The position numbers and the translations under genes are program-made. Of a stretch of 53,310 nt of DNA, positions 5,678-49,345 are shown one piece after another. Position 1 is the first letter of the stretch, and each line of letters opens with the position of its first letter. A model generated the notes under the pieces. It saw nothing but the letters and a program-made list of their open reading frames with translations. It was not told where the DNA came from and did not search any database. Source of the DNA: Thermoanaerobaculia bacterium (GTDB lineage Bacteria > Acidobacteriota > Thermoanaerobaculia > Gp7-AA8); the NCBI GenBank assembly GCA_035276365.1, contig DATELS010000330.1:1-53310 (forward strand). Reading direction: 5' to 3'.

Positions 5678-6279
5678 CCGCGTGCCTCGGTCCACGTGTG
5701 CCAGCCTGTCCAGAGCGAGAATGCCGCGATGACGGCTGCCGCGGCCGGATCGGCCCACCACCAGCCGAGGGCTGCGTTCAACGCCAGCCCGGAGAGGACA
5801 TTCAACGAAAGATAGTTCGACAGCCGCGTTTCCGCGGAGTCGGCGATCAGAACCTTGCTGCCGAGGCGCTCGCCGGTCGTCCGCTTCATCCGCGCAACGG
5901 GGATCATTACCGCCAGCGCGATCACGTTCATCGCGATGCCGACGATTGATGGCTCCGGACGTTCCTGCTGCAGCAGCCTGCTGATCGACTCGAACCCTAC
6001 ATAGAGGCCGAGGAGGCAGAACGTGCAGGCGATGAGACGCAGCGCCAGCCGGTGGCGCCTTAGCGAAGCCTGCCGCCGAAGCTGCCAGGCCACGATCATC
6101 GACGCGAACACTTCGATCGCCGAGTCCAGACCGAACCCGATCAGGACGATCGACTGCGCGATGACACCCGCTGTCACCGCCACCACCCCCTCCACGATGT
6201 CCCACGCAATCGTGAAGTACGCCAGCCACAGGCCGCGCCGCAGCAGAGCGTCGTGCGGCATCGCGGCGGCGGCGGTCAT
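5674..6279 (-). CDS. Cation-efflux (CDF-like) membrane protein, transmembrane domain only
   Basis: Start at MTAAAAMPHD (ATG 6279 overlaps the ATPase stop). About 6 TM helices. Contains FGLDSAIEVFAS and LIADSAETRLS, Asp/Glu pairs as in CDF TM2/TM5. There is no cytoplasmic C-terminal domain. Confidence 0.6.
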   Translation of the reverse strand: MTAAAAMPHDALLRRGLWLAYFTIAWDIVEGVVAVTAGVIAQSIVLIGFGLDSAIEVFASMIVAWQLRRQASLRRHRLALRLIACTFCLLGLYVGFESISRLLQQERPEPSIVGIAMNVIALAVMIPVARMKRTTGERLGSKVLIADSAETRLSNYLSLNVLSGLALNAALGWWWADPAAAAVIAAFSLWTGWHTWTEARG

Positions 6280-8387
6280 GACCTCAGCATCCGCAGTCCG
6301 CTGGCGATGACGATGAACTCGCTGAACTCGTGGCCGAGGACAGCCATCGGCAGCGTGAACTTGCCGAGCACGGCACCGGTGACGAAGACGAGAATGACGG
6401 CGATCGACAGCGCGAGGTTCTGCCGCACCACCGATTGATTTCGCTTGGCCAGCTTGATGGCGTAGACGAGCTTCTCGAGATCGTCGGCCATCAGCGCAAC
6501 GTCCGCAGTCTCCAGCGCCACGTCCGTCCCTGCGGCTCCCATGGCGATGCCGACAGTCGCTTCGGCGAGCGCGGGCGCGTCGTTCACGCCGTCGCCCACC
6601 ATGGCCACGTGTCCGTGCTCTTTCGAGAGCTCGCGCACCTTCACCGCTTTGTCTTCCGGCTTGAGGTTCGCGAAGATCCGGTCGATCCCGACCTCGGAGG
6701 CGATCGCTCGTGCCGTCGTTTCGTTGTCGCCGGTGAGCATGGCCACCTGCGTCACGCCGACTGCGTGCAGAGCGGCGATGGCCGCGCGTGCGTTCGGCCG
6801 GATGTTGTCGCGGATGGCGATCGCCGCCCATGCTTCGGTGGGGCTGCCGACGATCACCACGGTGTTCCCGCCGGCGCGCAGTCGCTCGATCTCGCCGCGC
6901 AATGCGTCGAGGCCGACGCGCAACTCGCCTTCGAAGAGCTCCGGACTTCCGATGTACACGTCGTCGTTGCCAATCCGGCCCACTGCGCCCGCTCCGATGA
7001 GCGAGCGGAACTCGTCGAGCGGCTTCGGCTCAACACCCTTCGCCGTCGCATGCGCCACGATCGCGCGCGCCAGCGGATGCTGGCTGCGACTCTCCACTGC
7101 AGCCGCTCGCGCCAGAATCTCTTCAACGGAAATCGCCGTGGTGGCAGTGACGACCTGCGTCACCTCGGGTTCGCCCCGCGTGATGGTGCCGGTCTTGTCC
7201 AGCGCGACGACGCGCACCTTCGCCAGCTCCTCCAGATACACGCCGCCTTTCAGCAGCACGCCTTTGCGCGCTGCCGTGCCGAGGGATGCCACGAGAGTGA
7301 TCGGGATGGCGATCACCAGCGCACATGGCGACGCCGCGACGATGAATACCGTCGCGCGCGTGATCCATGTCCGCCAGTCCGCATCGAACAGCAGCGGCGG
7401 CACGATCGCGACGAGCACGCCGATCGCCAGCACCGCGGGGCTGTAGCGGCGACCGAAGCGCTCGATGAAACGCTCGCTCGTCCCTTTCCGCTCCTGCGCC
7501 TCCTCGACCATCTCGATGATCCGCGCGATGGTGTTGTTGGCGAACGTCTTCGTGGCCCGCACCTCGAGCGAGCCTTCTTCGTTGATGCTGCCCGCGAAGA
7601 CCGGATCTCCTGTCGTCTTCTCGACGGGAACGCTTTCGCCCGTGACCGGTGCCTGATTGACGCTCGAGCGCCCGCCGATCACCTCGCCGTCCGTCGCCAG
7701 CGCCTCGCCCGGACGGACGATGAAGATGTCGCCGACCTGCAGCTCCTCCACCGGGATCTCGACTTCGCGTCCGTCGCGTCGCACCGTGGCGCGCTTCGGC
7801 GTGAGGTCCATCAGCTTCCGGATCGCCGAGCGCGTCTTCTCTTCCGTATACCCCTCGGCCGCTTCCGAGATGGAGTAGAGGAAGGCCAGCATCGCCCCCT
7901 CCATTGCCTCGCCCATGATGATGGCCACCGTCGCGCCGACCGTCATCAGCATCTCGATGCTGATGCGCCGCTCGAAGAGCAGGTCTTCGACTGCCTCGCG
8001 CGCGAAGTAGTACGCGCCAATGACGGCGGAGACGATGTAGATCGCCAGCGTGACCGTTTCGCTCGCGCCGGCGCGGCCGATCAGCCATCCGGCGAGCAGG
8101 AGAACTCCCGATGCGACCGAGGTGATGACCTTCGGGTTCTTCCACGGCTTCGGCGTCTCAGCCATGCCGGGTCCCTCATGCACGGGGAAGCCGAGGTCGC
8201 GCAGCGACGTCTTGATCGCATCCGCGGAGACGCGCTTTTCGTCGAACCGCAGTGCGACCTTCGCCGCCTTCGGGTAGACCTGCAGGTCGGAGATGCCTTC
8301 GACGCGCTCGAGACCGCGCCGGATTGCGGCGGCGTCGCTGTCGCAGTCGAGATGGGCTACGCGGAGCTGAAGTTCCTGATTCGGCAT
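6276..8387 (-). CDS. Heavy-metal P1B-type ATPase with SPC transmembrane motif
   Basis: Start at MPNQELQL. HMA-like N-domain (LRVAHLDCDSDAAAIRRGLERVEGI). Also TGESVPV, SPCALVIAIP, DKTGTIT, GDGVNDAPAL, and HEFSEFIVIASGLRML in the last TM. Confidence 0.9.
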   Translation of the reverse strand: MPNQELQLRVAHLDCDSDAAAIRRGLERVEGISDLQVYPKAAKVALRFDEKRVSADAIKTSLRDLGFPVHEGPGMAETPKPWKNPKVITSVASGVLLLAGWLIGRAGASETVTLAIYIVSAVIGAYYFAREAVEDLLFERRISIEMLMTVGATVAIIMGEAMEGAMLAFLYSISEAAEGYTEEKTRSAIRKLMDLTPKRATVRRDGREVEIPVEELQVGDIFIVRPGEALATDGEVIGGRSSVNQAPVTGESVPVEKTTGDPVFAGSINEEGSLEVRATKTFANNTIARIIEMVEEAQERKGTSERFIERFGRRYSPAVLAIGVLVAIVPPLLFDADWRTWITRATVFIVAASPCALVIAIPITLVASLGTAARKGVLLKGGVYLEELAKVRVVALDKTGTITRGEPEVTQVVTATTAISVEEILARAAAVESRSQHPLARAIVAHATAKGVEPKPLDEFRSLIGAGAVGRIGNDDVYIGSPELFEGELRVGLDALRGEIERLRAGGNTVVIVGSPTEAWAAIAIRDNIRPNARAAIAALHAVGVTQVAMLTGDNETTARAIASEVGIDRIFANLKPEDKAVKVRELSKEHGHVAMVGDGVNDAPALAEATVGIAMGAAGTDVALETADVALMADDLEKLVYAIKLAKRNQSVVRQNLALSIAVILVFVTGAVLGKFTLPMAVLGHEFSEFIVIASGLRMLRS

Positions 8388-8413
8388 CGGAGTGAATCCT
8401 CGGGTGTAATGCT

Positions 8414-8812
8414 TCAGACGAGCTCGCGCACGTGGTCGAATCCTTCGTCGATCAGGCGTCCGATATGCTCGTCGTCGAGCGAGTAGTAAGCGATTTTTCC
8501 CTGCTTGCGGTACCGCACGAGATCCATCTGCCGCAGCGCGCGGAGCGAGTGCGAGACCGCCGACTGCGACGCACCGACGATGGTGGCCAGATCGCAGACG
8601 CACAGCTCTTCCTTCGAGAGAGCGAAAACGATCTTCACGCGCGTGGCGTCGCCGAGGACGCGGAACGTCTCGGCGAGGAGCTGCACGGCGTCGGCGGAGT
8701 GCATCTTGCGGCGGACGCTCGTGACCTTCCGGGCATCGACGACGTTCACTTCACAGGCGTCGTCGTTCGTGTCGACCTTGCGATTCTTCTTCAGTTCGGT
8801 TCGTGCGCTCAT
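8414..8812 (-). CDS. ArsR/SmtB-family metal-sensing repressor (CadC-like Cys pattern)
   Basis: LGDATRVKIVFALSKEELCVCDLATIVGASQSAVSHSLRALRQMDLV is a winged HTH with the ELCVCDL alpha3 site. An N-terminal Cys is present (DDACEV). Confidence 0.9.
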   Translation of the reverse strand: MSARTELKKNRKVDTNDDACEVNVVDARKVTSVRRKMHSADAVQLLAETFRVLGDATRVKIVFALSKEELCVCDLATIVGASQSAVSHSLRALRQMDLVRYRKQGKIAYYSLDDEHIGRLIDEGFDHVRELV

Positions 8813-14008: not shown

Positions 14009-16432
14009 TCAGCTTCCGTGACACTTCTTGTACTTCTGGCCGCTGCCACAAGGGCACGGCGCATTCCTCCCGATCTTTCCCTCGGCTGCGACGCGCAGTC
14101 GGTAAGTAGCTTTGGCTAGCTCATCGATCCGGCCGCGGTCTGCGGGATCGATCGAGTCGGGTCGTACCCACTCGAAGGCAACCTCGACGAGCGAACCATG
14201 GGCGTCGAACATCAGCTCGAAGAGGAGCCGGCTCTCTTCGCTGGCGAGGGACGCCAGACCAAGCGTCATGTCATGCGCATAGTCGGAATTGCGCGCCACG
14301 ACGCCGTCTCGCCAGCAGAAGATCGTGACCGCAGTGTTTCCATAGACTGATGCCGGCGCCGGTGGTCCGCCGACGCGTTGTCGCTCGATGGCGTGGTCGA
14401 GCAGCATCGACAGCTGCTGTCTCGATGACGAATCGAGGTCGAGCAGCGCCGCCGCCGCGCTGGCCCGGCCGCGGGTTTGCTGCGTCGCGAGCCGATCGAG
14501 AACCTGCTGAAGAACGGGTGGCAATTTCTGACCGGGACGGGTGGCCGTACCGTCGAGCAGCATCGAGTGGTAGTACTGATCGATCGGCTCCTTGTATCCG
14601 CGCCACATCGTCGGTTCGCTGGAGCTGATCTTCAGCGCGGCCTGCAGGTAATCGTTGTGCGTGAAGTACAGCCCGAGATGATCCAACTCGTCGTCGATCC
14701 TGATCGCTGAAGTCTGTGCGACGGCGCGTCGGCGTTGCCGCAGATAGTGAACGAAGATCAGCGGGTTCGAAAACAAGTCGCGCATGACGCGCAGGTCATC
14801 GATGGAGACGGACCATCCCGGCATAGTGCCGACATCGACGCCCATCGGCTTCAGATGCTCCGCCTGCGCCGCAAGGTCGGTGAGCGCGTCCAGCGTCACG
14901 CCGCAAATTGTGACCACCTCAAATCGATCCCGGCGAAGGCGGGTGAGCTCGTGGTGTTCGCGGTCGAACATCGGCACCTCCTCCGCGCTGTTTAGATACT
15001 CGAGAAACCGTCGTCCTTGGCTGAGCGGCTTGTGGATGAGGCTCTTCGCAGAGGCAATGTGCGCGGGAAAGTCATTCGTCGGTGCCGTGTACGTGAAGGC
15101 ACCTGCTTTGACTTCGATGATGAAGAGATGTTCCTCCAGGTCGGCGACGACGACGCCGTCGCACTCGCACCAGTTCTTGGTGGATCTCTTCGTCGGCGGC
15201 CACTGGTAGTACGCAGGGGCGTATGCTTTTGCTCCGTTGACCAGACCGGAGATCAGCGATATCGCCACCGCTTCGGAGGCTTCTCGCTGCCGGTCTTCCC
15301 ACTGCTGTTTCAGATCGGGACGAAGCCTGAAAACTGCGCGCGAGATGATGCGGTACAGGTGATCGCGAACCGCGTAGACGTCGAAGCAGTAGAAACGGTC
15401 TCCGACATGAAGAAAAGGTCTGCGATGGATCGGCCACTCGCGCAGAGGCCATCCCTTCATCTCGTCACCGCTGAAGAACGAAGTCTCTTCGCCCGGTGCC
15501 CAGGCAAGTTCGCGTAGGAAAGCAGAGGGCAACTTCGTGATCTTCTGGAGGTCGAACAGGCCGAAGTGGTACAGCCGGTCGAAGACGTCATCGCGACGTT
15601 CAGTCCACCCGCGCTTCTCGACCGAATACTTTCCCAGTTCTTTCACGTCGGAGAACTCCACGCCCGCCGCGACGTCCTCCTCCATGGCTGCGAGGCAGTC
15701 TTTGTGGAACGCGACCAAATCGTCTTTCGCTTTGTTGATGCCGAGGGTGAGGCTGAATTCGATGTTCTCGACCGCGGAGATGATCTCTTCTGCCGAGACG
15801 CCGAATACCTCGCGCAGGATGCCGTCCTGCGGCGTCACGAAGTCGCGCAGTTGTTCGATGAGATGAACCGGATATCGATCGCCTCGGACGGTTGTCCAGT
15901 ACACCTGGGACTTGAAGTACAGCTCCTCGTGCTGTTCGTCGTAGGCAGGGTCGTTCAGCTTTCGCTCCGCCGTGCGTGCAGCCATGTATGGACCGTTCAC
16001 GAGCGTGAACAGCTCGTCTACATTCCTCTTCAGCCCTTCCCATACATCGTCGGCTAGCTTCGTTTGATCCGCCGCTGGAGGAACTGCCGCGATGACGCTC
16101 TGGACGTAATCGATCATCCGCATCGCCAGAACGTGGTCAGCACCGATCTCGCTCTCCGCCGTCACGGTGAGATGCTGGACGGCGAACATCCACCACGCTC
16201 GGAGAAGCAGTTCGTCTGGTTTGGTTGAACGGACGATCTCCGCGATCCGTGTCACGCGCGCGTCGATCTCGGCGGCTACGTTCGGGACCTGTTGGGCGAG
16301 GTGTTCGAGATGCTCGCGAAACTCCTCGGGCGTCATGAGGTTCCGGGCATAAGTCGTGCGGCCGAACCGCGCCAGCTCGAATGGACCCCACCGAAGTACG
16401 TCGTCGGGCAGCTTCTTTTTCTTGTGCTTCAT
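14009..16432 (-). CDS. Large (808 aa) SEC-C-motif protein with an internal PD-(D/E)xK/NERD-like nuclease core
   Basis: Start at MKHKKKKLPDD. Core is NWCECDGVVVADLEEHLFIIEVKAG (D...E-x-K). C-terminus is GRNAPCPCGSGQKYKKCHGS (SecA-type SEC-C zinc motif). The upstream 192 codons of the listed ORF are off-frame-like. Confidence 0.7.
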   Translation of the reverse strand: MKHKKKKLPDDVLRWGPFELARFGRTTYARNLMTPEEFREHLEHLAQQVPNVAAEIDARVTRIAEIVRSTKPDELLLRAWWMFAVQHLTVTAESEIGADHVLAMRMIDYVQSVIAAVPPAADQTKLADDVWEGLKRNVDELFTLVNGPYMAARTAERKLNDPAYDEQHEELYFKSQVYWTTVRGDRYPVHLIEQLRDFVTPQDGILREVFGVSAEEIISAVENIEFSLTLGINKAKDDLVAFHKDCLAAMEEDVAAGVEFSDVKELGKYSVEKRGWTERRDDVFDRLYHFGLFDLQKITKLPSAFLRELAWAPGEETSFFSGDEMKGWPLREWPIHRRPFLHVGDRFYCFDVYAVRDHLYRIISRAVFRLRPDLKQQWEDRQREASEAVAISLISGLVNGAKAYAPAYYQWPPTKRSTKNWCECDGVVVADLEEHLFIIEVKAGAFTYTAPTNDFPAHIASAKSLIHKPLSQGRRFLEYLNSAEEVPMFDREHHELTRLRRDRFEVVTICGVTLDALTDLAAQAEHLKPMGVDVGTMPGWSVSIDDLRVMRDLFSNPLIFVHYLRQRRRAVAQTSAIRIDDELDHLGLYFTHNDYLQAALKISSSEPTMWRGYKEPIDQYYHSMLLDGTATRPGQKLPPVLQQVLDRLATQQTRGRASAAAALLDLDSSSRQQLSMLLDHAIERQRVGGPPAPASVYGNTAVTIFCWRDGVVARNSDYAHDMTLGLASLASEESRLLFELMFDAHGSLVEVAFEWVRPDSIDPADRGRIDELAKATYRLRVAAEGKIGRNAPCPCGSGQKYKKCHGS

Positions 16433-16516
16433 CGCGCCGTGATGAACAGGTACGAGTGCTGATTTGGTTCCCTGTCTCCCGAGCCGTACGATCTGGCGTG
16501 ACCGTACCCCTGTGCG

Positions 16517-17005
16517 ATGATGCCGCACGTCGTGACGACCTCCGACATCCTCCTTCGCCTCACTGTCGCCACGCTCATCGGAGCGATCCTCGGTGTAGAC
16601 CGCGAGCTCCGCGCGAAGCCGGCCGGGCTGCGTACGCATGCCCTCGTGGCGCTCGGTGCGGCGCTGGTCACGCTGACCACGCTCGGCCTCGCAAACGGCG
16701 GCAGCGCGGATCCAGTGAGCCGCGCCATCCAAGGCATCATTGCGGGCGTCGGCTTTCTCGGTGCAGGCGCGATTCTGAAGGCGCGCGATCGCGACGAAGT
16801 GAGCGGTCTCACCACTGCCGCCTCCATCTGGCTCGTCGCCTCGCTCGGCATCGCCTGCGGCGCCGGTTACTGGCTCGCCGCGCTTGCCGCTCTCGTCCTC
16901 GCGTTGATCGTGCTCGTCCTCGGCGGTCCGGTGGAAGGATTGTTGCGCCGTCTCTTCGGTAGGGGCGAGCGGAACGAGCCGCCGCACGCACCGAACGAGC
17001 GGTGA
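16517..17005 (+). CDS. mgtC: MgtC/SapB-family membrane protein
   Basis: LLRLTVATLIGAILGVDRELRAKPAGLRTHALVALGAAL...GIIAGVGFLGAGAIL...GLTTAASIWLVASLGIACGAG are typical MgtC blocks. Confidence 0.85.
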   Translation: MMPHVVTTSDILLRLTVATLIGAILGVDRELRAKPAGLRTHALVALGAALVTLTTLGLANGGSADPVSRAIQGIIAGVGFLGAGAILKARDRDEVSGLTTAASIWLVASLGIACGAGYWLAALAALVLALIVLVLGGPVEGLLRRLFGRGERNEPPHAPNER

Positions 17006-17085
17006 CAATCGCGGCCGCAGTTACCCCATTCGACGACGTGAGGAGTATGATTTGTTCGTGCTGTCGTTACGAAAGGAGCGGCACG

Positions 17086-24566: not shown

Positions 24567-24567
<1 letters not shown>
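23314..24567 (+). CDS. czcB: RND efflux periplasmic adaptor (membrane-fusion protein), lipoprotein-type
   Basis: Lipobox LAALAC, His/Glu-rich linker, then HlyD-like blocks (VSGRVERVTAVAGDRVGAGAVLAILSSPE and LRAPISGTITERMVNAGAGV). The start overlaps the czcC stop. Confidence 0.85.
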
Positions 24568-27659
<3,092 letters not shown>

Positions 27660-38730: not shown

Positions 38731-38791
38731 TGGTCTCAGTCTATCGAACTACTCGATGCGCCACGCGAACGGGCCGGGGTAATGTGTGGGG

Positions 38792-39461
38792 ATGCCACCC
38801 TTCGATGACGCCGCCCGACTCGCGCGCATGACGGAGTGGGCGAAGACGATTGCCTCCGAGGTTGCGGACGACCTGCAGCAACACCACATCTTCTGGCAGG
38901 TGCAGGACATCATCCGCGCCAACCCTCAGCTCACGAACGCACGCAGCCACTTCTTCCAATGGATGGGCGACGTCTTCGTCGCCTCGGCCGCCGTTGCCGT
39001 TCGCCGACAAACCGACAACTCAGACGACAGCGTTTGCCTGCGTCGTTTGTTGCGCGAAACCAAGGAGTATGTCCACATCGTCACGCGCGCGCACTACCTG
39101 TCGTTGTGCGGCGCTCCTGATGACGAGGTCGACTTCGACAACAGCTCGTTCGATCAGTGGGCAGGCGAAGGCGGTGATCATCTCGACCCGAACCTGGTGG
39201 ACGCCGATCTCCAGTCGCTGCTCGACGTCTCCGAGCGCATCCGCCACTACGCGAACAAGCGCGTCGCCCACTACGACCGTCGCGGCGTCACGCCCGGCAT
39301 GATGCCCACGTTCGACGCTTCTCGACGAAGCGTACAAAGTGATCGAGGCGCTCACGCAGAAGTACCACCTCATTTTCACGGGAGTGTGGATCGGGCAGCT
39401 GCGGCCGACGATCATCTATCCATGGACGGACGTGTTTCGGGTGCCGTGGATTCAGCAATGA
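38792..39461 (+). pseudogene. Hypothetical (possibly Abi/HEPN-like) gene interrupted by a single frameshift near 39313-39322
   Basis: The frame from ATG 38792 reads well up to ...HYANKRVAHYDRRGVTPGMMPTFDA, then becomes Arg/Ser/Ala-rich and runs antisense through the next gene. The +1 frame continues LLDEAYKVIEALTQKYHLIFTGVWIGQLRPTIIYPWTDVFRVPWIQQ*, ending at 39461. Confidence 0.5.
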
Positions 39462-39509
39462 AGTCGCGATTGCCGGAGCGAAGGCGCGCCCGAAGTCTTC
39501 GGCAGCAGA

Positions 39510-40355
39510 CTACTCCGCCGAACCGCGGGACCGTCGCTGCTTCAACTTCGAGATCGGAACAGAGACGAATGCCGAGTGGTGAACCATCGGCAGATGGAAC
39601 AACCCCCATCGCGGGAGGCCGTACTTCTTTTTCAGATACGTCAGCACGCCATGCTCATCGCGCCGGTCGATGTCGCAATCTGCAACGAACGCGATGCCAG
39701 CACTCTCGAGCGCGTAAGGGTCAACCACGCCGCCTTCGTCCGAATCGAACCAGCGAAACAGGGCTGTCTCGCGGAACTCGGCAAGCCGATCTGCGAACGG
39801 GTTGAGGAGCAGCGTAAACGTGCGGCCGGTGTCGAGAACCACAGCGCTCAGCTGCGGATACTTGAAGAAAACACTGCGGTGGAAGAAGTAGCACTGAACC
39901 GGAGCAGTCTCGCCGAGCCGTGGCATCCGGATCAGATTCGCGCTCCCGAACGCGGTATCGTGCACCTGCTTCATGAGCGTCGTGGCGTCGTTGAATTGCG
40001 GATCGATGTAGAACCAGATCAGCTTGAACGGATCGCCGGTCGCATCGATGGCGTCGAGTTGCTTGACCGCGTGCGCCATCGTCTTCTCCGTCGGTGCTGA
40101 GAAGCCCATCGGATGATGGAGCAGCTCGGTCTTGCCCTCCTTGCGAAGCGTCCGAGCGATGGACTCATCGCTGCGACGCCGCTTCACCTCGATCAGGTAC
40201 CGGTTGGCGTCGTCGGCAGCGAGCAGGTCACACGTCTTCCGTTCAGCCGTGCGCGCGAGCTTCTCCGCCCGAAACCCCATCTCGTCCAACCGACCGATGA
40301 CGTACTCCTCCTCGGCCGTGATCGCCGTGTCGATGACAGGGTCCTGGGAGGACAT
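39510..40355 (-). CDS. PD-(D/E)xK (restriction-endonuclease-fold)-like protein
   Basis: Start at MSSQDP. N-terminal EEEYVIGRLDEMGFRAEKL...TCDLLAADDANRYLIEVKRRR shows the E...D...E-V-K pattern. The C-terminal 180 aa are unassigned. Confidence 0.55.
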   Translation of the reverse strand: MSSQDPVIDTAITAEEEYVIGRLDEMGFRAEKLARTAERKTCDLLAADDANRYLIEVKRRRSDESIARTLRKEGKTELLHHPMGFSAPTEKTMAHAVKQLDAIDATGDPFKLIWFYIDPQFNDATTLMKQVHDTAFGSANLIRMPRLGETAPVQCYFFHRSVFFKYPQLSAVVLDTGRTFTLLLNPFADRLAEFRETALFRWFDSDEGGVVDPYALESAGIAFVADCDIDRRDEHGVLTYLKKKYGLPRWGLFHLPMVHHSAFVSVPISKLKQRRSRGSAE

Positions 40356-40434
40356 GACGTCGGATCCGAACAGCGTCTCACCGCTCGTTCTTTCTAGCGC
40401 GAGCCCACGCACGTACGTGACCTAGAATTCCTTC

Positions 40435-43400
40435 GTGAAGCGTCCCCGCTCCGGCGGCCCGGGCATGCACTACGGGCTGCTCTACCAGGTCTTCAGCAGT
40501 CTCGGCCGAGCGCTGACGGTATCGGTGCAGGAGGATCGTCGGACCGCCCAGTCGATCGTTCTGGTCGTCGAGCCTTCCGGTGGAGACCTCGTCGAGACTG
40601 GCCTAAAGCAGCGCGATGTCTATCAATACAAAGCGCGAAGCAGTCGGCGGCCTTGGTCTCTCAAGGACCTGATTGACAAAGTGTTGCCTGACCTCTACCG
40701 AGCCGTTCCTCCTGTGCCGGACCTCCCGACGCGGTACTGGCTCGTAACGGAAGGCGGCGCCGGTGAGTGGCAGGAAGCTCGTGCCCTGTTTGCGAAGCTC
40801 GCCACGATCCCGGCGGAACAGCTGCCTCGCGCGCTCGACGACGAGGCCAAACGAACGTATCTGCCGGGTCGCCGACATACAGAGCGCGAATTTTTTCTCG
40901 ACGTTGGGCGGCGCGTGACGAAGCGTAGTGGCGAGCTCGACGGCGAGACGTTGTCGCGAGTGCAGACGCTTCTCATCGACTTCGAGATCACAACGGTCGA
41001 CTTCCCCGCGGTTCAGGAGCAGGTCACGAACCTGCTCCTCGGCTTCGTTGAACATTACGAGAGCCTGCCGCACACCGTGGATGCCTTGGTCGGTCTACTG
41101 GTGCGTTGGGGTGCCGAGGGCAATCGGAGCTTCACCGTCGACGAGCTTCTTCGGTCCGCCGGCCTCGCACCGACCTCACTCTCTCTCCTGCCGCTGGCTC
41201 ACGACCGCCTCCGCGAACGCCTCGACTCACAGCTGGCCAAAACGACCTACGACCGCACGAAGCACGTTCACCGGCCGATCGCGTGGCCGGAAGGGAGAAG
41301 CGTCCTCTGCATCACCGGCGAAAGCGGCACGGGAAAGACCAGCCTCCTCGGGCAAGTAGCGGATGCGGGGGTCGAACACGGCCCGGTGGTGTTCTGGCGT
41401 CCACGTCGCAACGAGAAGGATGCTCTTCGCGGCGCAGCCGACGAGGTATGGCGTCAGATCCTCGGACACGACGCGAGCTTGCCGCTCGACGCGATCGCTC
41501 GCCGGGCCGACACACTCAAGCTCGGCGGGAGTGACTCTTGGCTGACCGTTTGTCTCGATGTGACTGCCGATCCCGCATACGCCGCAGAGCTCATCGGCGA
41601 AGACTGGAACAAGTGGCGGATTCGGATGGCGTTCACCGCCAACGCTTCGTCGGCCACGGTCTTGGCGGAGTCGAAGCATGGCAATGCCGTCGTTGTGACC
41701 GTGAATGAATTCACGCCACGGCAGATTCGCGAATTCTTCACGCGGCGTCAGATGGATTGGCGTCGCATTCCGCCGTTCGTGATCGAACCACTGCGTCGAC
41801 ATCCCATCCTCGCCTACGTGTACGCCGAGCTCGGGGATGGGGAGACGTGGCGCGATACGAACGAGTACGCACTCTTCCGACACTTCTGGCGGCGTCTCAC
41901 CGCTGCGCCCGGACAACATGAGTATCCGAACGATGCCGCTGCGTTGATCAGACTCGCCGACACGCTTCTGGAGGTGCCGGACAACACGCACTGGACAGCG
42001 ACGCAGATGGACGATCTTCGGATCGACGGCGCGACGAGAGTGCGATTGCAACGGCTCGGCTGGATTCGCAACGACGCGGACGGGCGTGCGGAATTCGTGC
42101 ATCAGCGATTGATGAACTGGGCGGTCGCCGAAGCAGCGATCGAGCGCTGTCGCGCAACGCGATGGAGCAGTCACGGGTTGGGCACGTACCTCGAGAAAAT
42201 TCTGTCTGGGAGCGATGACAATCACCGACGCTTCGGATTCGCGCCGATGGACGCGCTCTCCATTGCACTCTCGTCCGGGATGCAGGCAGGCGAAGTCGCG
42301 ACCGTTCTCGAGACGATGGAGAATCCGAGGTTTTACGAGAACCTCGTTCCTTCATTGGGTGCTGCGGTCGTCCCGGCGCTTCTCGAGCGCCTCAGGCGAG
42401 TCGGAAGCCGGCGTCGCTCGCCGAACAGTTACGTACGTGCCGCGATCCTCGCCATCGCCGCGCAGGAGTCGCTGCATTCGAGTGTCGTCGTTGAGATGCT
42501 CAATGATTCGCATACGAGTGTGCAACGCGCCGGTGCGGAGCTCTTGAAAGAACATCCTGCCGGAGAAGCACTCGATGCGCTCTGGCGCCTCCGTAACCAG
42601 CTGCGAACGACGGAGTCCGACGATCCGCTCATCAATCATCTCGATCTCGATGCTGTTGGAGACGCGCTCGAGGCGTGCGTTCGTGTGGATCCGCATTGGC
42701 TTGCCCGAACGGTTCGAGAGACGACGGAGCTCGAGAAGCTCGCTCGACTCGTGCGATTGCTCGCCACACTCGCGAACGAATCCGGCATGCAGATGTGGCA
42801 CGGATCGAAGGACGCGATTCTCGGGCTTGCGGATGATGATGCGATTGCCACCGCGGCCGCGCGCTGCATCGGGCGGTACCGGGACTCCCATGAGGTGCCG
42901 AGACTCGTCGCCTGGATCGCGGAACGATCTCGGGAGGTGGTGGAGGAGAGTTTCTCCGCTCTCGCGTTGGTCGAGCCCTCGAAGGCGCTCGAGCTGCTGC
43001 GGGACTCGCTACGCATTGCCGATGTGGCACATGTCTGGAGCGTGTGGTGGTCGCGCCTGTTTGTCTACGACCGATCTGCAATGAACGAGATCGTCATGCA
43101 GGCGTTGCGAGGGGGCGGTCTGCTGCGCAGGATCCGCATCGATGACATGGCGTGCAGCCGACTTGCGCCCGCCATCGTTGAGCGGCTGGATTATCTGGTC
43201 GAGACCGAGGGGGCAGACGAGGCCGAGGCGTTGCACAAAGAGATCGACCATTTGATGGGATTGCTCGCTCGAGCGCACACACCGGACGCGCTGCGTTTTC
43301 TCCGGGGTCTCGCCGCGACCGACGTCGGTCGACAGCTTGCCGCCTATGCTGCGAGACGTAGCGCCACGTCCAACATCCGGCCGGACAGCTTCCTCGAGCA

Positions 43401-44937
43401 TGCCGAGACAGTGCTGCTGAGGATCGGCGGTGAGCCGCTCCATACATTCCTTACGGCACAGATTGCGCGGCGGGATCATGGATGGTTCCCTGACAAGATC
43501 CGCGTGTTCCAGGCCGCGCCGTCAGCCGATGCACGTCGCATCATCGAGAACCTCCTCGAGGAGGTGTGGGACGCGAAGCGCGGCGAGGACGATGACTGGC
43601 CGGTCCGCTCGGCGTGCATCGAGACGCTCGCAGCGATGGGCGACCGCAGCGTCGTCATGCGCGCCGAGGAAAGTGGCCGCCTCTCTTACTCGGGTGACTT
43701 TCCGCGAGCCATACGGGATCTTCCGCCTGCAGACGATCGCGAGACGATGCGCCTTCTGCAGAAGGCAGCATCCGATGATGATGCGATACCCGCAATCCGC
43801 GCACTAGCATGGTCGCGGCGAACGGACGTCGTTGGACACCTTGTCGAGCAGGTAGTGTCTTCGCGTCCGGAAGAGGTCCGGAACGCAGCGCGCACTGCAT
43901 TGAAGTATCTGCCGACCGGCCCAATGGCGGCGAATCACCGTGAGCTACTCCGTGCGGCAGAAGAGCATTCAACGTACCTCGATGCACTCTTTCGGGATGG
44001 CGCACCGGAAGCGGTCGGCGACGCGGCGAACTATCTCGGTGCGATCGGAACGAAGAGTTGGACGTTCGACGACGCCCACTCCGCCGCATGGTTGGTCGTT
44101 TACCGCGAGCGTTTGGAGCTGGCTTCGCAGGTGTGGCAGTGGGCGAAGGGTCACACGCGTTTTTACTGGGAGAGCGACGACACGATCTGGCGAGCCCTCG
44201 GGTATGTGGAGAACGAAGATGCAGAAGAGTTCCTGCTCGCCGAGGCGTATAGCGGAAAACGTGGCGAGATCAATCCAGCAGCAATTGAAGCCCTCGCGCA
44301 TCGACAGCGCGATGAAGCATTCGCCGCGGCCATGCACTTGTTCGATGAGGGAAAGGGTGCGCGCGCATCCGCGCCCGACCTGCTCATGGAGATCGACAGC
44401 GCCCGAGCCGTAAAGGTGATCGCGGAACGTCTGCCCCGCGAGCGCAACGTTCTCATTCGCGCCAGTTCGTGTATCGCCTTGCGCGGAGTCGGCGATGACA
44501 TTCGGCGGATGGCGCATGACTGGATGAATCACGCTGATCCGTTCACGCGCGCGTCCGGATGCGAGTTGCTCGGATGGCTGCAGCCCGAGGATACGAGCCG
44601 ACTGCGCGACATAGCCCTCGCGGACATCGATCCGATGGTGCAGGTGTTCGCCTTGGATGCGTTCGCGCTCCACGAGTCGCAGCGCGTCACGGGCGAGCTC
44701 CTTGCGGAGCTGCGGAGCGCGGAAAGCACGACAGCTTGGGCAGTCACCGACGCTCTCATCACATCCGCGCACTGCTTTCTCCTCGATCGATTTGACGATC
44801 CGCTGGCGCTTTATCCGGCGCTGAAGGGAAAGCAAGGAGCTCTTCGTGTCAGCGCTGCAGAGCGGCTCAAGAAACGAGTCGAGGAAGTGCAGAAGAAGTA
44901 CGACGAGCCGATGCGTCGCGACTTCTATCGGCACTGA
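40435..44937 (+). CDS. Antiviral-STAND (Avs/NLR)-like protein: Cap4/DUF4297-like nuclease N-domain, P-loop NTPase, and a long HEAT-repeat C-terminus
   Basis: 1500 aa (alternative ATG at 40465). N-domain is GLLYQVF...VVEPSGGDLVE...DVYQYKARS. Walker A is ITGESGTGKTSLL. Multiple HEAT/PBS-lyase-like repeats are present (DSHTSVQRAGAELL, DPFTRASGCELLGWL, DPMVQVFALDAFA). Confidence 0.75.
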   Translation: MKRPRSGGPGMHYGLLYQVFSSLGRALTVSVQEDRRTAQSIVLVVEPSGGDLVETGLKQRDVYQYKARSSRRPWSLKDLIDKVLPDLYRAVPPVPDLPTRYWLVTEGGAGEWQEARALFAKLATIPAEQLPRALDDEAKRTYLPGRRHTEREFFLDVGRRVTKRSGELDGETLSRVQTLLIDFEITTVDFPAVQEQVTNLLLGFVEHYESLPHTVDALVGLLVRWGAEGNRSFTVDELLRSAGLAPTSLSLLPLAHDRLRERLDSQLAKTTYDRTKHVHRPIAWPEGRSVLCITGESGTGKTSLLGQVADAGVEHGPVVFWRPRRNEKDALRGAADEVWRQILGHDASLPLDAIARRADTLKLGGSDSWLTVCLDVTADPAYAAELIGEDWNKWRIRMAFTANASSATVLAESKHGNAVVVTVNEFTPRQIREFFTRRQMDWRRIPPFVIEPLRRHPILAYVYAELGDGETWRDTNEYALFRHFWRRLTAAPGQHEYPNDAAALIRLADTLLEVPDNTHWTATQMDDLRIDGATRVRLQRLGWIRNDADGRAEFVHQRLMNWAVAEAAIERCRATRWSSHGLGTYLEKILSGSDDNHRRFGFAPMDALSIALSSGMQAGEVATVLETMENPRFYENLVPSLGAAVVPALLERLRRVGSRRRSPNSYVRAAILAIAAQESLHSSVVVEMLNDSHTSVQRAGAELLKEHPAGEALDALWRLRNQLRTTESDDPLINHLDLDAVGDALEACVRVDPHWLARTVRETTELEKLARLVRLLATLANESGMQMWHGSKDAILGLADDDAIATAAARCIGRYRDSHEVPRLVAWIAERSREVVEESFSALALVEPSKALELLRDSLRIADVAHVWSVWWSRLFVYDRSAMNEIVMQALRGGGLLRRIRIDDMACSRLAPAIVERLDYLVETEGADEAEALHKEIDHLMGLLARAHTPDALRFLRGLAATDVGRQLAAYAARRSATSNIRPDSFLEHAETVLLRIGGEPLHTFLTAQIARRDHGWFPDKIRVFQAAPSADARRIIENLLEEVWDAKRGEDDDWPVRSACIETLAAMGDRSVVMRAEESGRLSYSGDFPRAIRDLPPADDRETMRLLQKAASDDDAIPAIRALAWSRRTDVVGHLVEQVVSSRPEEVRNAARTALKYLPTGPMAANHRELLRAAEEHSTYLDALFRDGAPEAVGDAANYLGAIGTKSWTFDDAHSAAWLVVYRERLELASQVWQWAKGHTRFYWESDDTIWRALGYVENEDAEEFLLAEAYSGKRGEINPAAIEALAHRQRDEAFAAAMHLFDEGKGARASAPDLLMEIDSARAVKVIAERLPRERNVLIRASSCIALRGVGDDIRRMAHDWMNHADPFTRASGCELLGWLQPEDTSRLRDIALADIDPMVQVFALDAFALHESQRVTGELLAELRSAESTTAWAVTDALITSAHCFLLDRFDDPLALYPALKGKQGALRVSAAERLKKRVEEVQKKYDEPMRRDFYRH

Positions 44938-44952
44938 GATACTGGAGAGCTG

Positions 44953-45540
44953 GTGAAGAAGCGCGCGGCCAGAGCGGACCCCGACCCACCCATAGGCGAG
45001 ACCGCAGTAGAGATTCTCGAACAGATCAGCCGCGCCTTCGGTGCACCACGGCTGACCGTGGAGCTTCTTCCCGCGACGACGTGGGGCTCGAACCTTCGGT
45101 CCGCCTTGCGCGTAAGCCACTGGGACAAGCTCCGCCGCGCCGCATATGCGGCTGCGAACTATCGCTGCGAAATCTGTGGCGGTGTTGGTCATCAGTATCG
45201 AGTCGCATGCCACGAGCGATGGGAGTTCGACGACGCGCAGAGCTACCAGCGGCTCGTCGGTCTCATCGCGGTCTGTCCCGAATGCCACGACGTGAAGCAC
45301 TTCGGCCGCGCAAACGAGAACGGCCGCGGGCCATACGCGAAGTTGCACCTCTGCGAAATCAACGACTGGTCGATCGCCGACGCTGATCGCTACCTGAAGC
45401 TCGCCTTCGCACTGTGGAAGCTACGCACGCGCAAAGAATGGCAGCTCGACCTGACGTGGCTCGAGCAGTTCGGGATTGTGCCGAAGGCGCAATCGATCAC
45501 CACTCCTCTTCGTCTTCGAAGTCCTCGTCTTCCGGCGTGA
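44953..45540 (+). CDS. Small HNH/treble-clef-like zinc-finger protein
   Basis: GTG start 5 nt after GGAGAG and 16 nt after the STAND stop. Contains YRCEICGG...VACHERWEFDD...IAVCPECHDVKHFG. Confidence 0.55.
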   Translation: MKKRAARADPDPPIGETAVEILEQISRAFGAPRLTVELLPATTWGSNLRSALRVSHWDKLRRAAYAAANYRCEICGGVGHQYRVACHERWEFDDAQSYQRLVGLIAVCPECHDVKHFGRANENGRGPYAKLHLCEINDWSIADADRYLKLAFALWKLRTRKEWQLDLTWLEQFGIVPKAQSITTPLRLRSPRLPA

Positions 45541-48500
45541 CATCGACCGTTCGCTTGATGCGTTGGATCTCAGCCGCGACGCTCTCATAAAAGTCTCGAG
45601 CCGGAGCCGAGATCGGTAACGCATCGCGCGCTGCGATTGCGCTCGTGAGGATCTGTCGCCGCAGGTCATCGGTCGTGGTCCGCGGCACGGCACATCTCAG
45701 CAGCGCATCGTGCATCGCATCGCGCAGCTCCGAATCAACTGCTGCCGCATCGGCGAGGAGCTGCGTGACGAACGCCGAGTCCTCCAGAATCAGGCGCCGG
45801 CACGCTTCGCCACGAACGCAGTTAGCGACGAACGTGACGGCCGAATCCGTTCGCTCCGCGCTCTTCCGCTTGAGGAATGCGACCGCTGCCGCATTCATCT
45901 TCCCTGATGCGAGTGTGAATAGCCGCGGCGCGTCGTACGCCATCCCGTTCGCGTACGCATCGGCGATCTTCGTGAGCAGCAATTCGTACTCCTCGGAGGT
46001 CGAAAGCGCTTCATCAATCACCACCTCCGGCGGATCCATCGGCAGAGCCGTGAAGCGCAGCATGCTCACGCGGTCCTCCCGCTGGATACGACGGAGCAGC
46101 AAGTCGATGATCGCAAGCGGGTCGCGGCGGCCGCACTCCTCGACGAAGTCGCCGAGATGAACGCCGTCGAGCTGCGGCACCGTTTCGAGCTTCGCAATGC
46201 AGCTTCGGAGCTCGTTGGCGGTCAACGCCGAAAACAGAGTCTGCTCCGGCTCGTCGAACATCTCCGCCATGCGTTCGACGTCCTTGTGATCGCCGCGCAA
46301 GTCGGTGCCCAGAAGAAGCGCAGCTGCAGTCCGTGGGTGGCGTTTCGCAAGGCGAGGTAGGCTACTCAGGCCGGCGACCGCTACTTCGCCGGCCATCGCG
46401 AAGAGGGCGGTGATGTTCTCGAGATCCCTCTCGTTCAGATCGTCTTCGCCGATCCACCATGCGTACGACGCAACCACCGTCGCCGCCATCTCACGCGCAT
46501 CGTTCCGCACGATCGTTGAGATCAGGACGTGGAACCGAAGCTCATCCGACGCGCGCAACGGCATCACGATCGAATTCGCGTAGCGTGCAAGCTCCGGCGC
46601 GTTCGCGGCCGTGAGCAGCTCCGCCATTTCAGCGGCGACCACGGGATTCGCGTTCGCAACGGCGGTGAGAAACGGCGCCGGATGTGGATGCAGATCGAGG
46701 ATTCGCAGCCCGCCGATGGTGTCGTCGAGGTGCCGAATGGCATCGCTGGCCTGAGTTGTCGCCGCAAACTCTTCAGCGGTTGCTCTGAGAAGACGCGCCG
46801 TCTCGTCTTGGTCGACCTCAACCGTGCGATGCGAGCCCAACGGGCTATTGATGAACCGCGCGACTCTGTCGATCAACGTCTCCGATAGCGAGGCGAGTAC
46901 CTGCTGCGCAGCCTCTCGCATGTCTTCGTCGCCGGTGTCCCGCTCCGCGTACCACTCAACAGTCTCGCGAATCTGAATGCCGATGACGGGATCGGCATTG
47001 CGCTCCGCAAGACGACGCAAGATGCTCATCGCTTCGAGGCGGTGCGGTTGCCATGCTGCGGCCTGTTCGTCCGTGACCAACAGGCCGCCGAGGCTGTGTG
47101 GCCGCTGCAACGCTTCGCCGAGCGCCTTCACCGCCGTCCCAACCACTTGTCGGTCGGAGTGATCCAGCGCTTTCACGACAATGGCTCTCGCTCTACTTCG
47201 CGTCCCTTTGAGGTATTCGGCGGGCACTAAGAACGATCGCGTGGTGATCGTCAGATCGTCAACAGTGTGGTCCATGCCGGTCTTCATGAACAGCGACTGC
47301 ACGACGCGAACGATGCTGATCCATTCCCCTGGTGTTTGTGTGATCTTCAACCACGTCTCGACACGGTTCATGAGCCGCCGATGAACCCACACAGGCTTCC
47401 GCAGACCGGGCGCCATGATCTCGCGCAGAACGCTGACGGGATCTTTGTCGTCACTGTTCTTCCGAGGCTTCGGAAGGCGCTCGTCGTTCGCCAGACGCCA
47501 GAGGAAGTCGCACGCCGCATCGAACGTCGACGGGTCGTACGCCGCGTATCGAACGACCTCGGGGAGGGCCGCGACGACGTCGCCGTGCGACGTCGTTACG
47601 AGCGCTGCATAGGGGCCGGTCTCTTCGGCCGCGGTCGGGAACTCGAGGGCGAGCTTCGCCAGCTCGAGCATCTTCCTCGGAAGGAAGTACCCCACTTCCT
47701 TCAAAGTGCCCAGCATCTGTCGTCGTTCGGAGTTCGGCGCGGCTTTGAACGTCGCGACGACTGAATCCCATACCGTTCCGAGTACGCGGAGCTCCTCGCC
47801 GGTCTTCCGGCCAACTCTCCAGTCGACCGCGGCCAGATTGCGAAGGAGAGCGTGATCGAGCGTGCCGACCGCGGCGACGATCTTCTCGACGAACGTGCTG
47901 CCGTTCACGCCCGGCCGCGTGCACGCTACGCCGAGGATGTAGTCGGAGAGCAAGTCGGGGACGATTCGGAGACCATCATGGCGCCGGGCGAGCACGCCGT
48001 GGCGATGGAGACGTTCGCACCACGATGCGGCGGCTTCTGCATCCATAGACGTCAGCGCCTGAACGGCTGCAATGAAGCGTTGAGACAACGGTTGGATCGG
48101 CGCGAGTGCCGCGATGATCTCCAGAAGTCCTCGCACCTCGGCCTCGTCAGACCCGGGCTTCGCGTTCTCCACGATCTCATCGAAGAATCGCGCGAGCGCG
48201 GTCTCGCGGAACAGCTCGTCGTTGGCCAGCAGCGACGGAGCGACACGATGCTCGCGCAGCAGGCGGCCTCCCACGATCGTGATGAGCGGACAGTCTCTCG
48301 TCGCTGCGGCAAGCTCGCGAGCGAGATGCCGGAACTCCGGCCCAAGCACTTCCGCTGCGAGCGCTTCCACTTCCGACAGCGTCATTTGCTCGAGCGGCTC
48401 GACGCTCGCCATCTCGCGCACGTCGATGTGGTGTCGTGAGGCGAGCGACGGCAGCTCATCGCGCAGCTGCGGGCGCGTCGCGAGAACGAGTTTTGTCCGT

Positions 48501-49345
48501 GTGCGCACAGCATGCTGGAAGAGCAGTCCGAGATCCTTGCGACGGTGCGCGTCATCGATGATGAGAATCGTGTTCGAGACGGGGAGCTCGCCGAGAGCGG
48601 GAGCCGTGATGTCGAAATCGAGCTGCGCGAAGTACACGTGGTGTGTCCGTTCCGCTCGTTGCGCGAATGCCTGCAGGAGTTTGCTCTTCCCGATGCCGCC
48701 GCGGCCGGGGAGGACGAAGATCAGCTGTTCCGGATTTGCGACGAACGTTTCGAGCTTCTGCAGATCTTCGCTGCGGCCGACCAGCGCGTAGGAATGATTG
48801 AAGATGCGGCTCGAATCGAGAAACGGCGCAAAGAAATCGTCCGGCTCGAGGAACGCGCCGAACGGCTCGATGCCGAGGAAGTCACGGCACAACTGGCCAC
48901 TAAAGTTCGTCCGGACGATGCGCCGGGCGACCTCGGTCGGCAGAGCGCGCACCTTCGCCGAGATGTCGTCCACGTCCCATACCGTCCAGAGCTGGTGCTT
49001 CTTTTCTTCGTCCCGCACACCTGCCGTCGCTGCGCAAGCGATCAGCGCGTAATAGCGGCTCGCCTGGTACGTCACGGTTTCCGCGAGGTTTCGAAGATCC
49101 GCAGGGCCGAACTTCTGCACGCGCCGGCATTGATGGCAGACGGTCTCGCCGCTCACGTCCGTCGAGACGAGGTCGATGCCTCCCTGCGGATCGCCGGGGA
49201 CGCCGTGCTGATGGCATTCGACGATCTCTGGAAGAGCACTCACAAGGTCGCGGCAGAACGACTGGAAGCGCTCGGGCGTGAGTGCCAGTAGAGGGAGTAG
49301 TTGCACCGTCGGGCGCACGGCGGCGGGTAGAAACGCATCAGGCAT
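45497..49345 (-). CDS. Antiviral-STAND (Avs/NLR)-like protein: Mrr-like restriction-endonuclease N-domain, NB-ARC-like P-loop NTPase, and a helical-repeat C-terminus
   Basis: 1282 aa. N-domain is LTPERFQSFCRDLVSALP...GDPQGGIDLVS...VCHQCRRVQKF (D-GID...QCK). Walker A is LPGRGGIGKSKLL and Walker B is ILIIDDAH. The remaining roughly 900 aa are helical ARM/HEAT-like sequence. Confidence 0.75.
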   Translation of the reverse strand: MPDAFLPAAVRPTVQLLPLLALTPERFQSFCRDLVSALPEIVECHQHGVPGDPQGGIDLVSTDVSGETVCHQCRRVQKFGPADLRNLAETVTYQASRYYALIACAATAGVRDEEKKHQLWTVWDVDDISAKVRALPTEVARRIVRTNFSGQLCRDFLGIEPFGAFLEPDDFFAPFLDSSRIFNHSYALVGRSEDLQKLETFVANPEQLIFVLPGRGGIGKSKLLQAFAQRAERTHHVYFAQLDFDITAPALGELPVSNTILIIDDAHRRKDLGLLFQHAVRTRTKLVLATRPQLRDELPSLASRHHIDVREMASVEPLEQMTLSEVEALAAEVLGPEFRHLARELAAATRDCPLITIVGGRLLREHRVAPSLLANDELFRETALARFFDEIVENAKPGSDEAEVRGLLEIIAALAPIQPLSQRFIAAVQALTSMDAEAAASWCERLHRHGVLARRHDGLRIVPDLLSDYILGVACTRPGVNGSTFVEKIVAAVGTLDHALLRNLAAVDWRVGRKTGEELRVLGTVWDSVVATFKAAPNSERRQMLGTLKEVGYFLPRKMLELAKLALEFPTAAEETGPYAALVTTSHGDVVAALPEVVRYAAYDPSTFDAACDFLWRLANDERLPKPRKNSDDKDPVSVLREIMAPGLRKPVWVHRRLMNRVETWLKITQTPGEWISIVRVVQSLFMKTGMDHTVDDLTITTRSFLVPAEYLKGTRSRARAIVVKALDHSDRQVVGTAVKALGEALQRPHSLGGLLVTDEQAAAWQPHRLEAMSILRRLAERNADPVIGIQIRETVEWYAERDTGDEDMREAAQQVLASLSETLIDRVARFINSPLGSHRTVEVDQDETARLLRATAEEFAATTQASDAIRHLDDTIGGLRILDLHPHPAPFLTAVANANPVVAAEMAELLTAANAPELARYANSIVMPLRASDELRFHVLISTIVRNDAREMAATVVASYAWWIGEDDLNERDLENITALFAMAGEVAVAGLSSLPRLAKRHPRTAAALLLGTDLRGDHKDVERMAEMFDEPEQTLFSALTANELRSCIAKLETVPQLDGVHLGDFVEECGRRDPLAIIDLLLRRIQREDRVSMLRFTALPMDPPEVVIDEALSTSEEYELLLTKIADAYANGMAYDAPRLFTLASGKMNAAAVAFLKRKSAERTDSAVTFVANCVRGEACRRLILEDSAFVTQLLADAAAVDSELRDAMHDALLRCAVPRTTTDDLRRQILTSAIAARDALPISAPARDFYESVAAEIQRIKRTVDVTPEDEDFEDEEEW

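Follow-up and report, generated by a model that had tools for sequence, protein, structure and literature searches.

Do two adjacent genes that look like an operon make up a two-gene defence system? The question is raised by a 53,310-bp contig from a metagenome-assembled genome (MAG) of Thermoanaerobaculia (Acidobacteriota); this whole stretch is called the window below, and coordinates are window positions unless a locus is named. On its forward strand, an open reading frame (ORF) of 1500 amino acids (aa), hereafter the giant (40435-44937; NCBI HKR64292.1, 'hypothetical protein'), combines a Cap4-like nuclease domain, a STAND-like NTPase and a HEAT solenoid. It is followed on the same strand by a free-standing HNH-like zinc-finger gene of 195 aa, hereafter the small ORF (44953-45540; HKR64293.1, 'HNH endonuclease'). 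An earlier note, made from the sequence of the locus, had described these two ORFs, which are real, and had proposed the small one as a partner of the giant in a candidate new defence module. Our analysis favors another reading, to which we assign a probability of about 0.6: these are two independent genes, a candidate sensor of the Avs type that would act as a single protein, and a free-standing HNH-family gene that landed beside it.

The evidence that carries this reading comes from the comparison of loci. When 37 diverse HNH-family proteins were used as tblastn queries against 21 giant-family loci and one plasmid locus (22 in all), the only match was in the syntenic locus L004, about 90% identical to the window; L006, which represents this locus in a GTDB MAG, also has the HNH gene. 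The small ORF is missing beside giants that are 79% (L088), 75% (L087), 66-67% (L001, L002 and L005), 44% (L003) and 28% identical (P0086 contig), and its close homologues are found elsewhere. Reciprocally, no giant lies near any of 80 HNH loci except L006. In these loci, co-occurrence with giants of this family is limited to the window, L004 and L006, and the partnership proposed in the earlier note is not upheld. Two further candidates were rejected: in L003, the 191-aa ORF found after the giant (44% identical) is no relative of the small ORF, and a giant-like protein (P0087) and an HNH homologue (P0058), each encoded on a 3843-bp contig, belong to different contigs and are no independent co-occurrence. 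As judged from these sequence comparisons, the adjacency of the STAND and HNH genes is a lineage-specific juxtaposition and not a new paired system.

The arrangement in the window itself is suggestive of more than this. The giant TGA and the small-ORF start are separated by a 15-nt spacer (start minus stop, 16), and the small ORF has, as previously noted, its own Shine-Dalgarno-like sequence, GGAGAG (44944-44949, forward strand), read from the sequence 3 nt 5' of its GTG and kept as GGAGGG in L004 and L006. A terminator and promoter scan of the locus found no terminator between the two genes. Because of this spacing, the separate Shine-Dalgarno and the lack of an intervening terminator, the two genes are probably co-expressed, the small ORF being probably co-transcribed from the promoter of the giant. 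At its other end, the small ORF overlaps by 44 bp the 3' end of a convergent gene of 1282 aa that encodes a second nuclease-STAND protein. Such compactness, kept in L004 and L006 at about 90% identity, would suit a lineage-specific module of two or three genes, in which the giant, and perhaps the convergent Mrr-nSTAND5 gene too, would have recruited the HNH protein as an accessory nuclease or regulator; HNH homologues elsewhere are sometimes found beside STAND-TPR (L015) or large P-loop genes (L092). Against it speak the other giant loci, none of which has the small ORF even at 75-79% identity, and the fate of the HNH gene in other islands.

One such island, L091, contains a block of 1693 bp (7001-8695 of that locus) that matches window positions 43963-45650 with 87% nucleotide identity and has sharp ends. 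Between a frameshifted piece of the giant (aa 1175-1500) and the final 38 codons of the convergent gene, it contains an HNH gene that is intact (85% identical); the block is directly downstream of an RHS toxin locus, and a repeat search around it revealed no convincing terminal repeats. At this locus, then, only fragments are left of the two STAND genes, whereas the HNH gene has come through whole. Two other loci, L007 and L092, encode HNH homologues 79-81% identical to the small ORF and share only the HNH core with the window (45016-45490, 86% nucleotide identity). There (L092 2599-6381 and L007 161-3309), the HNH gene lies between an unrelated 587-aa ORF, which ends 9 nt upstream and for which no Pfam or PDB match was found in L092, and the gene of a 459-aa Mrr_N protein, followed by a convergent 1376-aa P-loop ORF. 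The coupling of the HNH gene to this unrelated 587-aa gene in L092 is as tight as its coupling to the giant. In addition, clustering of the neighbours over the 80 HNH loci revealed no recurrent partner family. With these observations at hand, we consider a dedicated module very unlikely, and two independent genes remain the preferred reading.

The distribution of the HNH family is in line with an autonomous and mobile gene. A first search gave 75 clusters, and the 80 genomic loci come from hosts as diverse as Chloroflexia, Cyanobacteria, Deinococcota, Acetobacteraceae, Actinomycetes, archaea and others. The domains most commonly encoded nearby are TPR, TrwB/TraG, TrwC relaxase, RepC and SF1 helicase modules, and many of the neighbours are genes of plasmids or integrative and conjugative elements (ICEs). 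Family members 37-50% identical to the small ORF occur in 241 records of phages and 108 of plasmids, where they are often annotated as HNH or homing endonucleases; the phage carriers include Vequintavirinae and a phage of Tunturiibacter (Acidobacteriota), and the gene resides in early or recombination regions, not adjoining terminase. On this record, the small ORF appears as a mobile gene of the phage, plasmid and island type that lies next to the giant and is no conserved part of it. It would have landed between two convergent STAND genes in this Thermoanaerobaculia lineage, without being functionally required by the giant, and it may itself spread selfishly in the manner of homing genes or serve another DNA transaction.

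In related islands, the HNH gene (with, in L092, an AbiU2-like gene) seems to stay in place while the large genes are swapped. An alternative to a passing mobile gene is therefore worth weighing, namely that the small ORF is a stable component of these islands, either a stand-alone defence gene of the nuclease type or a gene that promotes recombination for the exchange of cassettes. The same HNH core (86% nucleotide identity) is present in islands that share the AbiU2-like gene and differ in their large genes (the window and L004 versus L092 and L007), the gene is intact beside decaying neighbours in L091, and a confident fold with nine residues invariant across phyla, four Cys and two His among them, indicates purifying selection. 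What makes a stable component unlikely in our eyes is that PADLOC provides nothing beyond a weak ZorE match, and that most homologues belong to phages, or to plasmids and ICEs in which they lie close to replication, relaxase and recombination genes, surroundings where free-standing HNH genes are usually found. That the HNH gene is a homing-type element promoting the exchange of defence cassettes within islands is a speculative extension.

The protein encoded by the small ORF is itself divergent. It carries the motifs C72-x2-C75, C86-H87-E88-R-W90 and C108-P-E-C111-H112-x3-H116, which the earlier note had singled out as a nuclease-like signature. The 37 homologues compared all share W57, C72, C75, H87, E88, W90, C108, C111 and H116, and H112 is kept in at least 90% of them. 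The overall spacing, CxxC-x11-H-x20-CxxCH-x3-H, is one that we take to be typical of zinc-finger HNH proteins. An AlphaFold2 (AF2) model, with a predicted local distance difference test score (pLDDT) of 92, places strands 85-93 and 98-107 in a beta-hairpin followed by a helix (109-115), that is, a beta-beta-alpha core, and the helix region carries C108, C111, H112 and H116. The signature is backed by weak matches to the HNH protein of Geobacillus virus E2 (5H0M, E 0.032) and to the PADLOC ZorE HNH model (E 0.014), by the name given by NCBI, and by a structure search in BFVD that retrieved phage HNH family members at E 2e-9 and 8.5e-9. No Pfam HNH match was obtained, and the model had no Foldseek match in the PDB (best E 0.7). 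Where the H-N-H motif has its central Asn, the protein has Gly103, a position that is Gly or Asp in the family (from the 5H0M alignment and the family pattern [GD][LV][IV]ALCPxCH). This support, weak but consistent, points to a divergent free-standing HNH-family gene and a putative nuclease.

The giant, for its part, is made of three domains, and its residues are numbered here from the GTG start codon. The first domain (approximately aa 11-250; 40465-41184, forward strand) contains the motifs GLLYQ (aa 14-18), E46-PSGG-D51 and Q64-Y-K66; the GxxYQ and Q-Y-K motifs cited in the earlier note are thus present, and the acidic pair reads E-x4-D rather than E-x5-D as stated there. Among 32 to 36 family members, 22-38% identical to the window protein, E46, P47, G49, G50, D51, Q64 and K66 are invariant. 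E46, D51, Q64 and K66 are the candidate catalytic residues, and they fit E...D...QxK, which is presumably the catalytic pattern of Cap4/DUF4297 nucleases.

Profile methods were of little help for this domain. No Cap4/DUF4297 match from Pfam, PADLOC or NCBIfam was found in the whole giant or in N-terminal fragments, leaving the first 270 residues or so matchless, and Pfam DUF4297 stayed undetected in three N-terminal fragments of the window protein even at E<=10; the PADLOC LmuA model was reached by 3 of 32 family members, at up to E 1.4e-5. A profile of the domain compared with PDB sequences returned spurious matches only, so that the domain is identified by structure alone. When an AF2 model of aa 11-282 (pLDDT 90.2) was compared with the PDB by Foldseek, 21 matches passed E<=1e-3; each had a probability of 1.00, and each was to a Cap4-type nuclease: HerA-associated DUF4297 (9c1m_G, E 4e-6), Hachiman HamA (8zue_A), SeAvs3 (8dgc_A, E 3.3e-5), Lamassu LmuA (9nxx, 9hqx and 9hr5) and CBASS Cap4 (6wam, 6vm6, 6vm5 and 7yib). 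The modelled structure confirms a Cap4-type PD-(D/E)xK fold, and with it the Cap4/DUF4297-like N terminus recognized from the sequence, which had no HMM (hidden Markov model) support. Of the profile and structure searches advised in the earlier note, those based on structure recovered the nuclease fold, and PADLOC gave no significant match for the giant.

The second domain (approximately aa 276-640; 41260-42354, forward strand) is a P-loop NTPase with a helical and winged-helix-like extension. Its Walker A motif is GESGTGKTS, as previously read (aa 295-303; 41317-41343), its Walker B motif is CLD375, and H556 lies in FVHQRL. Across the family, G298, G300 and K301 of Walker A, D375 and H556 are invariant; the family consensus around H556 is WHDRLLNWAVAE, and this winged-helix His is found about 255 residues past Walker A. 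The window protein has sub-threshold Pfam matches to nSTAND_NTPase5 (23.5 bits versus a cut-off of 34), AAA_16, AAA_22 and NACHT; in the family, matches below the Pfam cut-offs concern nSTAND5 in 10 of 32 members, AAA_22 in 16 and AAA_16 in 7. An hhalign comparison of the giant family with the nSTAND5-type family of the convergent neighbour aligned 252 columns, spanning Walker A through the winged-helix part, with a probability of 68% and an E value of 4.8e-5. Weak profile matches in the PDB were to SeAvs7 (9n00_A, E 0.015, winged-helix region only) and NLRC4. When profiles built on the NTPase, on the N-terminal half or on the whole protein were compared with the PDB, they also matched chains at the P-loop level (KaiC, ArsA) or through HEAT repeats, and did not settle STAND membership. 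On sequence grounds, the NTPase is likely to belong to the STAND class, its nearest relatives appearing to be nSTAND5 proteins.

The third domain, the presumed sensor, is an alpha-solenoid of the HEAT/PBS type that spans about 860 aa (approximately aa 641-1500; 42355-44934, forward strand), well above the minimum of 400 aa taken here for the long C-terminal sensor of an Avs protein. Pfam HEAT_2 is detected in four stretches of the window protein (E 1e-12) and in 31 of 32 family members, and the family profile retrieves alphaRep/HEAT chains from the PDB at E 1.4e-36 to 1e-10, in agreement with the 850 aa or so of HEAT/PBS repeats reported before. Taken together, the three domains support the effector-NTPase-sensor layout of antiviral STAND proteins that the earlier note had recognized.

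Proteins with this layout are numerous. A homologue search using indexed words had suggested a tiny family of 12 proteins, a view overturned by an exhaustive profile search with the N-terminal domain, which yielded 492 clusters at 50% identity. Among the 150 matches listed, 148 were new representatives, of which 91 have lengths of 1500 to 1599 aa, and the family appears, by these sequence criteria, both large and architecturally uniform. It is not captured as such by PADLOC v2 and Pfam. No neighbouring gene recurs across giant-family loci, and this absence of a conserved partner fits a single-gene system. A search of plasmids and phages found the giant in two plasmid records, a rare occurrence, and in no phage record.

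The region upstream of the giant provides a further argument on its expression and on its start. A -10-like box, TAGAAT (40423-40428, forward strand), lies 6 nt upstream of the GTG; TAnAAT is found at the same distance before a GTG or ATG in L001, L002, L003, L004/L006 and L087, and TACCAT in L088, so that conservation of the TAnAAT box reaches homologues down to 44% protein identity. No Shine-Dalgarno sequence is present in the loci compared (L001, L002, L003, L004, L087 and L088), and a generic sigma-70 scan found no full promoter upstream of the giant. A family-wide N-terminal motif, GG-x5-G-x-LYQ, is encoded upstream of an internal ATG; together with the conserved box, it indicates that the GTG at 40435 is the true start. 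The transcript is probably leaderless or nearly so and driven by the TAGAAT box, and the same pattern suggests leaderless transcription of the giant family in several lineages. The box was one of two upstream features pointed out previously. The other, the palindrome CACGTACGTG at 40410-40419, exists and was rejected as a meaningful site: perfect 10-bp palindromes occur 113 times in the window versus 76 +/- 7 times in shuffled sequences, so it is judged to be at chance level, and neither L004 nor L006, both 90% identical, has it intact.

Is the giant an immune protein? Its genomic context lends moderate support to a defence role, through the AbiU2-like gene and the Mrr-nSTAND5 gene of the window and the defence neighbours seen elsewhere. 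In L001, DarT-Macro lies 9 kb upstream of the giant and a convergent DUF4062-TPR gene follows it (14543-16309 of that locus, reverse strand); in L005, whose giant is also 66-67% identical, a similar DUF4062-TPR gene is found at 14544-16439 (reverse strand). Neighbours of giants also include PIN (together with DUF4062-TPR), CHAT-TPR and, on a plasmid, AbiEii with a deoxyribosyltransferase. A 2026 preprint renames DUF4062 as NIR, an NADase domain in bacterial immunity. PADLOC matches among 83 proteins encoded near giants were scattered.

The giant could instead be a STAND-type signalling or regulatory ATPase, or an enzyme of DNA transactions, with a Cap4-like domain serving a housekeeping function or a selfish element. 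Many STAND clades are not involved in defence (PMC13581612). Some giant loci lie among ordinary metabolic genes, no PADLOC system covers the protein, and its defence neighbours are sporadic. On the other side, all significant structural matches of the N-terminal domain are to known defence effectors (Cap4, LmuA, HamA, HerA-DUF4297 and Avs3), and the layout of nuclease, NTPase and long repeat in one protein of about 1500 aa is a hallmark of Avs. The gene moves between unrelated contexts and is found on plasmids next to Abi genes, and the window holds both an AbiU2-like gene and a second nuclease-STAND gene. A non-immune function seems to us improbable on this balance, and we favor, by inference, a defence sensor of the Avs type encoded by a single gene.

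By analogy with SeAvs3 and SeAvs7 (PMC13581612), the HEAT solenoid of about 860 aa would bind a phage protein. Binding of this trigger would free the STAND-like NTPase from autoinhibition and allow exchange of ADP for ATP; oligomerization would then gather the N-terminal Cap4-type PD-(D/E)xK nuclease domains, which could cut double-stranded DNA indiscriminately and lead to abortive infection. Trigger, oligomerization, nuclease activity and defence role are all proposed here from domain anatomy and analogy.

Several points weigh against the reading of two independent genes, one of them an immune sensor. STAND membership of the giant is drawn from HMM matches below threshold and from a profile alignment of 68% probability. 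Several giant loci have plainly housekeeping neighbours, so that any enrichment in defence islands is putative. Given the tight spacing and likely co-expression, a functional link between giant and small ORF that is specific to this lineage may nonetheless exist. The recurrence of the HNH gene while its neighbours change would also fit an 'anchor' role, and not simply that of a hitch-hiker. Finally, the nuclease activity of the small ORF is not assured, because it has no central Asn, no Pfam HNH match and no Foldseek match in the PDB.

The genes surrounding the pair contribute to the picture of an island. The convergent 1282-aa ORF (45497-49345, reverse strand) has an Mrr_cat-like N terminus (E 0.0018), a Walker A motif GRGGIGKSK and a helical C terminus. 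Its homologues have Pfam matches to Mrr_cat, nSTAND_NTPase5 and AAA_16, with HEAT_2 in some, and their N-terminal effectors are swapped between Mrr, DUF4062, metallophosphatase and helix-turn-helix (HTH) domains. About 4 kb past this gene in L004 (22761-23093 of that locus, in a region equivalent to one near the 3' end of the window) lies a 110-aa gene with Trypco1/Pepco matches; it points to a further conflict-system module of the same island. Upstream of the giant, a divergent ORF of 300 aa (39510-40412, reverse strand) begins 22 bp away. It is kept beside the giant in L004 and L006 (90% identity), with a short match at the end of L007, and it has no Pfam match and only a weak PADLOC match, to HEC-02B (E 0.0027); its LIEVKRRR stretch, of the D...EVK type, could be a PD-(D/E)xK motif.

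The AbiU2-like HEPN gene corresponds to an ORF at 38786-39805 (forward strand), with a Pfam HEPN_AbiU2 match below cut-off (E 7.7e-5), the real gene extending probably from 38786 to about 39450. Window positions 39001-39505 are 82.6% identical in nucleotide sequence to a 221-aa gene of L092 that carries a HEPN_AbiU2 match. In the window, the ORF runs on to 339 aa, antisense over the next gene; its stop may have been lost, or the ORF mechanically over-extended. The remainder of the window (4295-27659) resembles ordinary chromosome, with a P-type heavy-metal ATPase (6276-8603) and an AcrB-type RND pump (24567-27659). A 999-aa protein ending in a SEC-C motif is encoded at 14009-17008; no tRNA genes are present, and the G+C content is flat, at 61-69%.

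Should the giant family prove to be a working Avs, it would contribute a large clade, mostly from soil metagenomes, of nuclease-armed NLR-like HEAT sensors that current defence-finder models miss. The broader claim is that this family of proteins of about 1500 aa is a widespread and uncharacterized Avs family that both PADLOC v2 and the Pfam Cap4 model overlook and whose HEAT sensor would recognize a phage component unlike those mapped for Avs1-21; we put it forward tentatively, as a possibility that we do not favor. The locus also offers a caution for the reading of defence islands from a single example, since an adjacency that resembled an operon, and hence a two-gene system, proved to be a lineage-specific juxtaposition.

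Among known systems, the closest in layout are SeAvs7 (9N00) and SeAvs3 (8DGC), in which, as in the giant, a Cap4-type nuclease, a STAND-type NTPase (probable in the giant) and a long alpha-helical repeat sensor follow each other in one protein. SeAvs7 is a Cap4-STAND-TPR protein of 1523 aa, with K292, D358 and H545 (Lee et al. 2026, PMC13581612); the giant has 1500 aa, and its K301, D375 and H556 (K291, D365 and H546 when counted from Met11) have nearly equal spacing. The N-terminal domain superposes on the nuclease of SeAvs3. However, there is no significant sequence similarity to either protein, profiles of the full length and of the N-terminal half miss 9n00_A, and PADLOC Avs models do not match. 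The sensor of SeAvs7 is a bilobed TPR whereas that of the giant is made of HEAT repeats, and by sequence the giant belongs to neither SeAvs7 nor SeAvs3. Compared with Cap4/DUF4297 systems, the giant has the same nuclease fold, without a SAVED, SMC or HerA partner; its domain is fused to the NTPase and the repeat sensor.

The nSTAND_NTPase5 proteins (PF25199), represented by the convergent neighbour, have a homologous NTPase module and, in some members of the family, HEAT_2; their effectors are Mrr, DUF4062 or metallophosphatase domains whereas that of the giant is of the Cap4 type, and the winged-helix motif holds a His in the giant family (WHDRL) and a Pro in the neighbour family (IVPD). A 2026 census of STAND proteins describes 589 clades and 684 sensor clusters (PMC13581612). 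Part of its tables lists HEAT (COG1413) among the sensor annotations; the Walker A and winged-helix motifs of the giant family had no counterpart in part of the tables, which is not evidence of absence. The earlier note had presented the HEAT repeats as replacing the TPR-like sensors of described Avs families: the repeats themselves are confirmed, and the principle of a HEAT sensor on a STAND protein has precedents, in the HEAT_2 of some nSTAND5-family members and in the HEAT annotations of the part of the census just cited. The small ORF, finally, compares best with phage HNH proteins (5H0M and those of Vequintavirinae and Tunturiibacter phages), with which it shares the Cys/His spacing and, by prediction, the beta-beta-alpha core, and from which it differs by G103 in place of the Asn.

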